Shown: in pieces, positions 45,253 to 50,569 of the stretch
Layout: the number at the start of each line of letters is the position of its first letter
How positions within the stretch are numbered: the stretch's first letter is position 1
Origin: Escherichia coli
GTDB taxonomy: Bacteria > Pseudomonadota > Gammaproteobacteria > Enterobacterales > Enterobacteriaceae
Assembly: GCF_003334385.1 (NCBI RefSeq)
Contig: NZ_QOWN01000013.1
Direction: 5' to 3' (one strand)
Length of the DNA stretch: 64,000 nucleotides
Program-made: the position numbers and the translations under genes
The notes under the pieces: model-generated
What the model was told of the DNA's origin: nothing
Databases searched by the model: none
The model's input: only the letters and a program-made list of their open reading frames with translations

Positions 45253-45501
45253 CTAAGAGAGCACGGATTCCCTGTCATTAATAATGATATCCGTTAGTGT
45301 AGTCTTATGCATTTCAATGTACTGCAATATTTGCAGATAGAGATCAGAAAGAATCACACTGGTTTCATCTTTTAAACGCAAGCGTAAAGCCTGATCAATA
45401 ATATGACTATCAACATACCCATGCGTCATGAACACCTCCCTCTCGAGATTTTTAAACAAAGCACATTGAAAAATAAATCTCTCTGGGATTGAATTATTCA
45501 T
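45253..45501 (-). CDS. ymgC: Protein YmgC
   Basis: 82-aa ORF; last gene of ycgZ-ymgA-ariR-ymgC cluster by synteny. Confidence 0.65.
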   Translation of the reverse strand: MNNSIPERFIFQCALFKNLEREVFMTHGYVDSHIIDQALRLRLKDETSVILSDLYLQILQYIEMHKTTLTDIIINDRESVLS

Positions 45502-45613
45502 GTCAGCCTCGTAGAAATATTAACCCAATAAAATTATGCTGTGTATAGTCTAAAGCGACAGACAAAAATAAGATGAATGAGTTTTCTATAAACTTATACT
45601 TAATAATTAGAAG

Positions 45614-45880
45614 TTACATATCATCAGCTGTGTATCGCAACACGATTTCCAGTGTTTTTCTAATCACATCAGCTTTGAGAATATCACTTGTTGTTTCCAA
45701 GGAGTGTATCAGACTTAAGATAATATTTTTATTATTAACATTATCGCCTGAAAGCATTAAATTGGTGACAGCCTGCCCTAACACTGCTGATTCTTCTTCT
45801 AACAAATTACCCGAACTGCGAAAGTAACTTGCTAACGCTTTATCAGTTATTGCATTATGAATTGTAGTATCTTCAAGCAT
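45614..45880 (-). CDS. ariR: Connector protein AriR (YmgB; biofilm/acid resistance regulator)
   Basis: 88-aa ORF; synteny. Confidence 0.7.
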
Positions 45881-45908
45881 GGTAACCTCTCATCTTACTT
45901 ATGAAATT

Positions 45909-46181
45909 TTAATGTATTCTGTTTATTTTCTTACCATTGAACATACTTTTATTGTCAGCTGTCGCTGTTCTTCGGTTTGGCCCTCCTGAATCACTATTGC
46001 TAAAATCACGAATTATGCTGTCAATTAAATCGCGTCGGAAAGCATCTTCCTCAGCCGATTTCATTACGAGTAATTGCTTAATAAGAGTCTGCAATGAAAA
46101 ATTTATCTTCATGCGCAGTATCTGGAGCACCGCCTGGCCAGTAATTTCATATTTTATACGTTCATTATCAGATGTCTTCAT
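45909..46181 (-). CDS. ymgA: Connector protein YmgA
   Basis: 90-aa ORF; synteny. Confidence 0.7.
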   Translation of the reverse strand: MKTSDNERIKYEITGQAVLQILRMKINFSLQTLIKQLLVMKSAEEDAFRRDLIDSIIRDFSNSDSGGPNRRTATADNKSMFNGKKINRIH

Positions 46182-46223
46182 AACGACTTCATAGCTAACC
46201 TGTTAAATAATCAGGCTGTTGCA

Positions 46224-46460
46224 TTATTCAAAAAGCAACCCAATTAGTGCATTATAATGTTTCTGTTCCTCTTCCCCAGTCGCGTGTTCCAGTCGGCAAA
46301 GAAGTTTGGCACAAAGCGACTTTCGACTCAGATTACGTCCATCTTTCAAAATCTCAGTCACAATTTCCCCGAGAGTTTCCTGCTGAGTATGCAAGTTAGC
46401 TTTTGCAAAGTAACGAGTGATTGCTCCCGCAGAATCTAAAGTCACTGAATTTTGATGCAT
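46224..46460 (-). CDS. ycgZ: Protein YcgZ
   Basis: 78-aa ORF divergent from bluF. Confidence 0.7.
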   Translation of the reverse strand: MHQNSVTLDSAGAITRYFAKANLHTQQETLGEIVTEILKDGRNLSRKSLCAKLLCRLEHATGEEEQKHYNALIGLLFE

Positions 46461-47985: not shown

Positions 47986-48189
47986 TTTTCAGCACATTCT
48001 TTCACATGATTTCAGTAAATCATCGTGAAAATGAATACGTTACGTTTAAATTTAATCCACATTAAAAATAATGTTTCATCCAATTTAGCTGAAATCTTAT
48101 TTATACTTTGTACAATTTTAGCGTATATTGTACAAAGTATTATTGGGTCGTGTACAGGCGACGGAGATTTGTGACCGCAAGGAGGAATT

Positions 48190-48921
48190 GTGGCTTATTA
48201 CAGCATTGGTGATGTTGCTGAACGTTGCGGGATTAATCCTGTCACTCTCCGGGCCTGGCAACGCCGCTACGGTTTGTTAAAACCACAGCGCAGTGAAGGC
48301 GGACACCGACTCTTTGATGAAGAAGACATACAACGCATCGAAGAGATCAAGCGTTGGATAAGTAATGGCGTCCCTGTAGGCAAAGTTAAAGCATTACTGG
48401 AAACCACCAGCCAGGATACGGAAGATGACTGGAGCCGCCTGCAAGAAGAGATGATGTCAATTCTTCGCATGGCTAATCCTGCCAAACTACGCGCGAGAAT
48501 TATTTCACTGGGTCGAGAGTACCCAGTAGATCAATTGATTAATCATGTTTACCTTCCTGTTCGCCAGCGTCTCGTGCTTGATCACAACACCTCCCGCATT
48601 ATGAGCAGTATGTTTGACGGCGCATTAATTGAATACGCAGCAACCTCGCTTTTCGAAATGCGCCGTAAGCCCGGTAAAGAAGCCATTCTGATGGCGTGGA
48701 ATGTTGAAGAGAGAGCACGATTGTGGCTGGAAGCATGGCGTTTATCATTGTCAGGATGGCACATTTCTGTTCTTGCTGATCCCATTGAATCGCCGCGCCC
48801 GGAACTGTTCCCGACGCAAACATTGATTGTCTGGACAGGCATGGCACCAACGAGAAGGCAAAACGAACTTTTACAACACTGGGGTGAGCAAGGTTATAAA
48901 GTCATCTTTCATGCCCCCTAA
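48190..48921 (+). CDS. bluR: MerR-family repressor BluR
   Basis: 243-aa ORF with GTG start, [42 protein letters not shown]... (MerR HTH). Confidence 0.88.
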
Positions 48922-49141
48922 TTTCACCTTTATCCCGCCCCTTAGACAGAATGTTATAATCTGAACCCACAACAGCGTTTGTACCGGAGCTGGTCCGTTG
49001 CAAAATGCTCACCGGGAGAATTCAGATATTCCCTCTATCACACTCTGTACATATCACAGCCAAAGGACAGACCAGATTGAAGTGGTAAAACCGATCGTGC
49101 ACACTACGCAGTCTCACAACTAACAAGAGGTTATTATCCTG

Positions 49142-49546
49142 ATGGATCAGGTCGTTGTTTTTCAAAAGATGTTTGAGCAAGTGAGAAAAGAGCAAAACTT
49201 CTCCTGGTTTTATTCAGAATTAAAACATCACCGTATTGCACATTACATTTATTATCTGGCTACGGATAACATCAGAATTATTACTCACGATGATACGGTT
49301 TTGTTATTAAGAGGAACCAGGAACCTGTTAAAAGTTAGTACGACCAAGAACCCTGCTAAAATAAAAGAGGCCGCATTGCTTCATATTTGCGGAAAATCTA
49401 CATTTCGGGAATACTGTTCAACACTGGCAGGCGCGGGCGTTTTCCGGTGGGTTACTGATGTTAATCATAACAAACGCAGTTACTACGCCATTGATAATAC
49501 GCTTTTATATATTGAAGATGTAGAAAATAATAAACCATTAATCTAG
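49142..49546 (+). CDS. ycgX: Protein YcgX
   Basis: 134-aa ORF; synteny between bluR and iraM. Confidence 0.65.
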   Translation: MDQVVVFQKMFEQVRKEQNFSWFYSELKHHRIAHYIYYLATDNIRIITHDDTVLLLRGTRNLLKVSTTKNPAKIKEAALLHICGKSTFREYCSTLAGAGVFRWVTDVNHNKRSYYAIDNTLLYIEDVENNKPLI

Positions 49547-50245
49547 CTAAAGTTGGATACTTAAGAAATGCTTCATAATTCAGTAAGGCATTAGCATAAT
49601 GGAAATAAAAGTGCAGAGACTATCTCTATGGATGATTAATACTGTCTTTTTATTGTCACCCATAAATAATCACCAGACTAATACTATCAACTTGATATTT
49701 GAAATGTGATCACTTGACTTTTGATACGTTATTTTATAACGGTTAACATATTTATAAAAACAACGGCCGTGCCACACGTCCGTTTCAATACTTAACGCAC
49801 ATGTATTTTGGTTTAGTCATCATCCGGTTATATGTATTTTAGCCAGGAACAGGTTAAATCATTCCTATATAACTCAAAAATTGAAACCTTATTCTCATGT
49901 CATGCTTATATTCATTATTATCGTTATATAAAAAGGCAACCATAATGTTTAGCAAATTGGCACAAAGTAGCATAAAGGCTATGTTTTAATTACAGGATGT
50001 TCAGTCATTTGAATGTATAACATTATAGCTAAACAAATCTAAAACGAAGTCAATAATTTATTGCTTTCACAAAATCTCATTTTGTTTAACATCCATTGAG
50101 ATTCCTTGCTTTAAATTTTATTTTATATAAGCCATCATTTTAATTAATTTATTTTTTTGAGGGGGGGGTAATATACTCATATGCAAAATCAAGAAATAAA
50201 CATCCTAATGAACCATATTAAATACCGTGGGATAAGACATAACAA

Positions 50246-50569
50246 ATGAAGTGGATAGTAATTGACACGGTAATTCAACCTACATGTGGTATATCTTTTT
50301 CAGCCATATGGGGTAATATGAAAATGATCATCTGGTATCAATCTACTATATTTCTCCCTCCTGGCAGTATATTTACACCGGTTAAGTCTGGTATTATCCT
50401 TAAGGATAAAGAATATCCTATTACTATTTATCACATCGCACCATTCAACAAGGATTTATGGAGTTTACTCAAAAGCAGTCAAGAGTGTCCTCCAGGAGAA
50501 AGCAAAATAACAAATAAATGTTTACATAATAGTTGCATTATAAAAATATGCCCATATGGGCTCAAGTAA
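50246..50569 (+). CDS. iraM: Anti-adapter protein IraM (RpoS stabiliser)
   Basis: 107-aa [36 protein letters not shown]...; AT-rich. Confidence 0.8.

Follow-up and report, generated by a model that had tools for sequence, protein, structure and literature searches.

In a 64,000-nucleotide stretch of the Escherichia coli genome (contig NZ_QOWN01000013.1 of assembly GCF_003334385.1; this whole stretch is called the window below), positions 45253-50569 hold the genes ycgZ-ymgA-ariR-ymgC, bluF-bluR, ycgX, and iraM. An earlier note, made from the sequence alone, had described them as an AT-rich accessory block belonging to a known stress and biofilm system. Over all 5317 bases, this block shows 100% identity to E. 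coli K-12 MG1655; elsewhere the window is 99.97% identical to that strain. The eight genes were identified by their complete nucleotide identity to the annotated MG1655 genes, in agreement with domain and family scans, and each was found where the note had placed it. All eight have already been characterized, and the system is a textbook one rather than a novelty, as the note had also said (PMC3509220; PMC4045071). The block is very probably a known composite accessory region, lying between the side of the min operon and the icd 3' end, an integration hotspot, and acquired horizontally long ago in several pieces. At least three units, which differ in age and origin, make it up. The first would be the five-to-six-gene regulatory module ymgC-ariR-ymgA-ycgZ<>bluF-bluR, the second ycgX with ymgL as what is left of an accessory gene from a lambdoid phage, and the third an 864-bp cassette with ymgK and iraM. 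The features of the locus are as follows; gene coordinates are those of the RefSeq annotation projected onto the window.

41215-50713, no strand: full AT-rich zone, with part of the ycgH pseudogene, ymgF, pdeG, and the block
45253-45501, minus strand: ymgC, 82 residues, last gene of the ycgZ-ymgABC operon (MG1655 annotation)
45614-45880, minus strand: ariR (ymgB), 88 residues, small connector protein of the Rcs phosphorelay (annotation)
45909-46181, minus strand: ymgA, 90 residues, connector of two-component systems (annotation)
46224-46460, minus strand: ycgZ, 78 residues, first gene of the operon (NCBIfam NF040640)
46461-46773, no strand: divergent control region ycgZ<>bluF, 313 bp, 30.7% GC
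46517-46535, minus strand: BluR operator TGTACACATATTTCGTACA in the ycgZ promoter (read from the sequence)
46552-46566, minus strand: candidate MarA box GCACTAATTGCAAAA upstream of PycgZ (read from the sequence)
46774-47985, plus strand: bluF (ycgF), BLUF photoreceptor with degenerate EAL domain, anti-repressor of BluR (Pfam)
48190-48921, plus strand: bluR (ycgE), MerR-family repressor, MlrA paralogue (Pfam)
49142-49546, plus strand: ycgX, DUF1398 protein of phage ancestry (Pfam, PHROG)
49599-49709, plus strand: ymgL, open reading frame (ORF) of 36 codons (RefSeq annotation)
49757-49799, minus strand: diverged, vestigial copy of the icd terminator hairpin, left cassette boundary (sequence comparison)
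49945-49989, plus strand: ymgK, ORF of 14 codons within the cassette (RefSeq annotation)
50246-50569, plus strand: iraM, anti-adaptor that sequesters RssB and stabilizes RpoS (NCBIfam NF007393)
50621-50663, minus strand: icd terminator hairpin, right cassette boundary (sequence comparison)
50672-51922, minus strand: icd, intact, 416 residues

The base composition of the block sets it apart from its surroundings. Its guanine-plus-cytosine (GC) content is 38.5%, compared with 49.1% in the rest of the window, and the impression that it is visibly more AT-rich than the flanking genes is borne out. The block is approximately the lowest 5.3-kb stretch of the window: 0.3% of all same-size windows are as low, all of them overlap the block, and the lowest one that does not overlap it has 42.1% GC. 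Codon usage is atypical as well. The mean GC content at third codon positions (GC3) is 0.364 in the eight block genes versus 0.523 in the 50 other genes of the window (Mann-Whitney p=1.4e-6), ariR having the lowest value of the window (0.29), and the synonymous-codon log-likelihood of the block genes, scored against the other genes, is shifted (p=2.2e-6). The comparison of GC content and codon usage with the rest of the window, which the earlier note had named as a check, left its claim standing.

The block is not uniform, however. The GC content of bluR (48.8%) is normal for the window, and that of bluF is intermediate (43.6%); the ymg genes range from 35 to 42%, iraM has 34%, and the spacers have 29-31%. 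GC content is most extreme in the iraM cassette (31.1%) and in the ymg operon together with its control region (35.2%). The long AT-rich spacers mentioned in the note are indeed AT-rich, but only two are unusually long, namely the 313 bp between ycgZ and bluF and the 699 bp between ycgX and iraM, and the latter spacer contains the annotated mini-ORFs ymgL and ymgK. In a maximal-scoring segment analysis, the maximal AT-rich segment of the whole window spans positions 41215-50713 (39.2% GC). Its right edge falls sharply at the stop codon of icd, and its left edge lies within the ycgH autotransporter pseudogene. The left boundary of the block at 45253 is arbitrary, as the AT-rich zone reaches about 4 kb further to the left.

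Published binding data for H-NS coincide with this zone. Genomic SELEX (systematic evolution of ligands by exponential enrichment) located H-NS sites in the spacers bluF<>ycgZ, bluR<bluF, iraM<ycgX, ymgC>ycgG (pdeG), and ymgF>ycgH (Shimada et al., 2014, PMC3946193), and no site was found in those neighbouring core spacers of the window that the same study lists. With a site in every AT-rich spacer of the zone, these data agree with the note, which had named H-NS ChIP data as a check. Copies of the insertion sequence IS1 are present inside the block in several genomes (matches H6, H7, H24, H41, and H47), which fits the preference of transposons for H-NS-bound AT-rich DNA that is reported in PMC11335895. 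In E. coli JNEC-KY203 (7135-9056), an IS1-mediated deletion removes everything from ycgH through iraM. Absence of the block can thus be due to secondary loss, as in this strain; it is present in 5116 of 5426 complete E. coli genomes (94%).

The bluF-bluR and ycgZ-ymgABC genes form the regulatory module. BluF has a BLUF domain (Pfam PF04940, 4.5e-24, residues 2-92) and an EAL domain (7.7e-49). Its translation contains Y7, Q49, and M92, which we take to be the flavin-pocket residues Tyr, Gln, and Met of the BLUF domain. In an alignment with the canonical PdeG, which is encoded 2 kb away, the EAL motifs DDFGTG, KID, and AEGVET are replaced by DHFGAG, KIS, and AMGVAT, respectively, and these losses of catalytic and metal-binding motifs mark the EAL domain as the one already known to be catalytically dead. 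BluR consists of the Pfam domains MerR_1 (2.4e-18), MlrA_helical (6e-29), and MlrA_C (3e-32); its score of 268 bits on the NCBIfam model for MlrA stays under the cut-off of 417, as would be expected for a paralogue of MlrA. Among the small proteins, YcgZ matches NCBIfam NF040640 (122 bits, cut-off 80) and AriR matches the solved structure 2oxl. Two of the four match the Pfam family YmgB (PF10798); the output does not say which, one being very likely AriR and the other probably YcgZ. YmgC and YmgA had no match in Pfam, NCBIfam, or PHROG.

The control region between the divergent genes contains the sequence TGTACACATATTTCGTACA (46517-46535, minus strand), which agrees with the footprinted GTACA...GTACA / TGTAC...GTACA site of BluR (PMC3509220) and overlaps the -35 element and the spacer of PycgZ. 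Further upstream, GCACTAATTGCAAAA (46552-46566, minus strand) matches the MarA-box consensus GCAHWWWWTGYYAAA at 14 of 15 positions. MarA is a second activating input on the ycgZ promoter, and its box was reported about 62 bp upstream of the PycgZ start site (PMC6900184); the site at 46552-46566 would occupy this position. The signalling mechanism itself rests on published experiments with the identical K-12 sequence. BluR represses the sigma-S-dependent ycgZ-ymgABC promoter, and under blue light at low temperature BluF, the identical protein, binds BluR and releases it from DNA, whereupon YmgA and AriR stimulate the Rcs phosphorelay, with curli decreased and colanic acid increased (PMC3509220). 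In the organism studied here, BluR would accordingly occupy its TGTAC...GTACA operator and block the ycgZ promoter in the dark or in the warm. In blue light and cold, BluF with its catalytically dead EAL domain would bind BluR and remove it from the operator, and YmgA and AriR would then activate the Rcs phosphorelay and shift the cells towards more colanic acid and less curli. This is the same blue-light and cold biofilm pathway as in K-12 (Tschowri 2009, 2012), with identical sequence and no functional difference.

The distribution of the module outside Escherichia was surveyed with a BluF-anchored scan of one genome per species, which yielded 52 loci. None of them came from Escherichia, even though E. 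coli BluF contains both of the peptides used in the search. The arrangement in the window, where bluF adjoins a gene for a BluR-type MerR protein and the divergent ycgZ-ymgAB operon, is repeated in 20 other species of Enterobacterales: the architecture ariR-(ymgA)-ycgZ<>bluF-bluR is kept in 20 of the 52 loci, in Citrobacter, Enterobacter, Atlantibacter, Pectobacterium, Pantoea, Erwinia, Kosakonia, Phytobacter, and other genera. Homologues of ymgA (32-51% identity) occupy the same position in some other genera. Genes resembling ymgC, likewise at the same position and with 49-56% identity, occur among the 52 loci only in the Citrobacter freundii complex, whereas the 2012 paper on the blue-light pathway described ymgC as absent from other enteric bacteria. 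The genes ycgX, iraM, pdeG, and ymgF are found in 0 of the 52 loci. The module is flanked in different genera by carAB-dapB, by pth-ychF, or by genes that we take, from their translations, to be anmK-slyB-pdxH. It was reported to be absent from Salmonella and Yersinia (PMC3509220). The phylogenetic distribution, another check named in the note, is patchy, with the blu/ymg module at differing chromosomal sites and iraM variable within Escherichia.

In Citrobacter amalonaticus AUH_CA_2023_1 (2131-17945), the module adjoins icd, as in E. coli, and a 14.5-kb segment that contains it is bracketed by intact icd on one side and, on the other, by a decayed icd copy that covers codons 364-416 and contains a deletion and an internal stop. 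The segment comprises an autotransporter, fragments of a short-chain dehydrogenase/reductase (SDR) gene, ariR-ycgZ<>bluF-bluR, and about 4.5 kb of unrelated genes; bluF appears to be split into two pieces. This bracketing is the classic scar of integration at icd and places the module inside an icd-integrated island.

A different ancestry is indicated for ycgX and iraM. YcgX belongs to DUF1398 (Pfam, 1.4e-47) and PHROG 413 (1.5e-41), is 44% identical to the lambda ORF 47066-47452 near bor (YbcV family), and has homologues in 43 phage records. The adjacent ymgL had no family match in NCBIfam and PHROG scans. IraM exceeds the cut-off of NCBIfam NF007393 (172.6 bits vs 121), matches the structure PDB 8twd (E=8.6e-50), and falls into Pfam PF11183 (PmrD-like) and PHROG 4407 (4e-51); it is a member of the known anti-adaptor family of IraM, IraL, and RssC. 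Relatives with 63-70% identity are located in lambdoid prophages of E. coli and Escherichia albertii (CP034212.1 in the latter), between the antiterminator gene Q and nanS-like and lysis genes, and 46 phage records, mostly of Shiga toxin 2 (Stx2) phages, encode a relative. Two of the E. coli loci (GCA_039832115.1) directly adjoin the genes for the Shiga toxin A and B subunits and a nanS-like esterase gene. In these relatives, and in the likeness of YcgX to a lambda ORF near bor, the two genes resemble accessory genes ('morons') from the late regions of lambdoid and Stx phages. In view of these homologues, the ycgX-iraM segment, in which no integrase, structural, or lysis genes are annotated, is phage-derived, and ycgX (with ymgL) would be a leftover lambdoid phage accessory gene. 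The nucleotide similarity of the iraM cassette to phages is restricted to the iraM ORF (72.6%), and the cassette flanks therefore give no clue to the donor. A phage origin was also considered for the ymg operon and was dropped, as searches with the four Ymg proteins against PHROGs and with AriR against phage genomes (tblastn) gave nothing.

The literature describes how IraM sequesters RssB, so that RpoS is protected from ClpXP during Mg2+ starvation (bioRxiv 10.1101/2023.01.07.523045; PMC4045071). The IraM encoded here would act alike, binding the adaptor RssB and thereby keeping ClpXP from degrading RpoS. As a side aspect, the relatives of IraM encoded next to stx raise the possibility that Stx phages may also modulate RpoS stability. 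Expression of iraM is induced by PhoPQ under low Mg2+, and the title of a 2012 paper by Battesti names regulation of IraM by H-NS. The window has 31 PhoP-box matches versus 17.6 expected. A perfect PhoP box, GGTTTATTTAATGTTTA, is located at 56521-56537 upstream of phoP, about 6 kb from iraM, and belongs to the phoP promoter. By a word-indexed protein search iraM is confined to Escherichia, where it is variably present; its variable presence among E. coli strains has already been reported (PMC4045071).

The immediate surroundings of iraM provide a structural reason for this variability. Promoter-like and terminator-like consensus matches in the block are not enriched over shuffled sequences, and only the icd terminator and its vestigial copy are informative. 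These two hairpins, at 49757-49799 and 50621-50663, enclose ymgK and iraM; they are 84% identical and 864 bp apart, and a gapped extension of the left copy covers 49723-49803. The right copy has a 9-bp stem followed by a T tract (50626-50648) and is the functional icd terminator. On the minus strand the left copy, too, resembles a terminator, but no gene is there for it to terminate. The icd terminator of C. amalonaticus is more like the right-hand copy, which suggests that of the two it is the left-hand copy that is foreign or decayed. Among the 5426 complete E. coli genomes, the cassette is present in 3944 (approximately 73%), and 1037 (approximately 19%) have a clean empty site, in which the left flank of the left copy is joined to a hairpin of the right-copy type followed by icd sequence.

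On its right side, the cassette stops where the icd segment of known phages ends. Lambdoid phages that integrate into icd (phage 21, ev207, 2E9, D2) contain, one after the other, int, the same AAAACAACGG-hairpin, and 165-215 bp of the 3' end of icd, and in BLAST comparisons their homology to the host begins at window position 50619, the right edge of the cassette. In this respect the cassette resembles the icd-integrating elements (phage 21, e14, ev207, D2), its right edge corresponding to the int-proximal end of their icd segment. It differs from them in that the phages duplicate 165-215 bp of icd coding sequence, whereas here only the terminator is repeated and integrase, structural, and lysis genes are missing from the window. 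The sole icd-related nucleotide match within the cassette or to its left is the terminator repeat. A longer iraM insert exists on a contig from a divergent Escherichia (Logan SRR26874692, 3534-7141; 92% nucleotide identity). Its order is a single hairpin, sequence resembling the upstream region of iraM, an extra YmgB-family gene (86 residues) that sits between ycgX and the iraM orthologue, the iraM orthologue itself, and a TrkH/TrkG-like gene; no icd was found within 1.9 kb after the latter. An icd-like remnant after the hairpin of this contig was too weak a match and was not relied on. In the simplest reading, an element that inserted itself at the foot of the icd terminator, probably a lambdoid phage, left iraM and ymgK as its last remnant of about 0.86 kb, and iraM would then be more than just a chromosomal gene; in our view the chances for and against this are even. 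If this were true, two connector families, the IraM/PmrD-like and the YmgB-like proteins, would travel on icd-targeting elements.

Prophage e14, which also occupies icd, is absent from the window, where intact icd lies 102 bp from iraM. The same iraM-icd junction without e14 exists in K-12 GM4792, in ER1821R, and in many natural strains, and in MG1655 iraM is located beyond the icd pseudogene fragment, outside the e14 junction. Because iraM is present in the e14-free window and lies outside the e14 junction in MG1655, it is not an e14 gene. This contradicts the statement that K-12 iraM lies on e14 (PMC4045071); on the e14-free chromosome studied here, it is carried by a separate 864-bp cassette that lies outside the junction where e14 attaches. 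Other cargo is found at the same site. The icd-integrating phage D2 carries sitA beside the attachment region (2632-3282), and in the iraM-less E. coli FDAARGOS_1252 (8635-10549) sitABC comes directly after a displaced fragment of icd. At the icd locus, the sit iron/manganese transporter therefore appears to be carried by a prophage.

Several observations weigh against the acquisition of the block by transfer in several pieces. According to the annotation and a tRNA scan, the block lacks an integrase, a transposase, and tRNA genes. No tRNA or tmRNA was detected between 36 and 53 kb, and this part of the window thus offers no tRNA attachment site; a scan with Rfam at gathering thresholds detected no RNA family between 36 and 56 kb. 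No degraded remnant of the icd 3' coding sequence was found in the cassette or leftward in the window, where alignment scores stayed within the range of shuffled sequences, and the part of the window left of the block contained no displaced icd fragment. BluF and BluR had no matches to PHROGs or, by tblastn, to phages, and the 'phage-borne' idea of PMC3509220 is unsupported for the part that encodes Ymg, BluF, and BluR. Upstream of iraM, only reverse-strand matches with two mismatches to the PhoP box were found (50030-50046 and 50186-50202), no better than chance. The H-NS evidence stems from tables of in vitro SELEX results and not from chromatin immunoprecipitation (ChIP). Most importantly, the module is more AT-rich than its flanks in 20 of 20 species, by 1.4-8 percentage points (mean -4.9), and its GC content rises and falls with that of the host (43-52% across the 20 species). 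Low GC is a conserved, partly ameliorated property of the module and no sign of a recent arrival in E. coli. As module GC tracks the host, the module must have resided in each lineage for long enough to ameliorate, and low GC alone can neither date nor prove a transfer into E. coli.

The low GC might then be intrinsic. Short, weakly expressed genes under the control of sigma-S and H-NS, with large promoters, would experience weak codon selection and AT-biased mutation and would need curved, AT-rich control DNA, so that the region could be ancestral and vertically inherited. This would account for a module that tracks its hosts and yet is always lower in GC, with the small genes and the promoter part being lowest, and for the larger genes bluR (48.8%), bluF (43.6%), and pdeG (44.6%) lying far nearer the genome average. 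Low GC3 is also a feature of small genes outside the block, such as ymgJ, ycgY, ycgJ, and ymgI, and the presence of the block in 94% of the complete E. coli genomes would be expected as well. However, vertical inheritance does not readily explain why the module occupies unrelated sites across genera, once within an icd-bracketed island, why it was reported missing from Salmonella and Yersinia (PMC3509220), or why ycgX and iraM have clear phage homologues, and an insertion boundary is a better match than an expression gradient for GC content that changes abruptly right at the stop codon of icd. We therefore consider a purely intrinsic origin of the low GC unlikely. That everything from ymgC through iraM forms one unit, either a prophage since decayed or an island delivered by phage, in line with the suggestion of phage delivery based on the neighbouring e14 and prophage paralogues of ycgX (PMC3509220), would suit the phage-family genes ycgX and iraM, which, as we read the loci, are ordered and oriented as a lambdoid late region would be when read from icd, the proven attachment site in icd, and the icd fragment bracketing the C. 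amalonaticus locus, but is highly improbable because the block is intact where e14 is absent, which makes e14 irrelevant, the blu/ymg genes and the iraM cassette differ in distribution (5116 versus 3944 genomes), ycgX and iraM are missing from all 52 non-Escherichia BluF loci, Ymg, BluF, and BluR lack PHROG or phage tblastn matches, and the vestigial terminator between ycgX and iraM separates these genes into different events.

The low GC fits an old acquisition in several pieces. The AT-richness would reflect foreign origin and would persist because H-NS binds the DNA and because genes that are small and poorly expressed are under weak selection. The suggestion of the earlier note that the region is consistent with horizontally acquired modules gains from the phage homologues of ycgX and iraM, the variable sites of the module, and the polymorphism of the cassette; it needs qualification insofar as the low GC of the module tracks the host and does not point to recent transfer. 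The zone resembles H-NS-silenced xenogeneic islands in being AT-rich, in having published H-NS sites in its spacers, in its patchy distribution, and in attracting IS1. It differs from these islands in that it is small and without mobility genes, in that its core module is ancient and partly ameliorated, and in the normal composition of bluR.

Three other places in the window deserve mention. The window ceases to match K-12 at about 63415, close to the 3' end of potB: potB encodes 287 residues with an altered C-terminus and is followed by a gene of the YkgJ cysteine-cluster family (63542-63901), an arrangement common to only 88 genomes. In strain CFT073, iraL, a homologue of iraM, is located on a 'potB genomic island' (PMC4045071); the window ends too soon to reach any iraL position. 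The autotransporter gene ycgV (6298-8937) encodes 879 residues and is truncated relative to the 955 residues in MG1655, probably due to a single 1-bp indel that separates the window from this strain. The second most AT-rich segment of the window, at 5356-6493 with 35.6% GC, lies around ycgV.

In summary, a scan for base composition correctly flags a textbook accessory region here, and the refinements made to this picture are minor. The repeat-bounded cassette, present in some strains and absent from others beside the icd hotspot, is a structural basis for the known strain variation in RpoS stabilization. The blu/ymg genes, which are AT-rich and yet track their hosts in about 20 species, call for caution against taking low GC as evidence of recent transfer.

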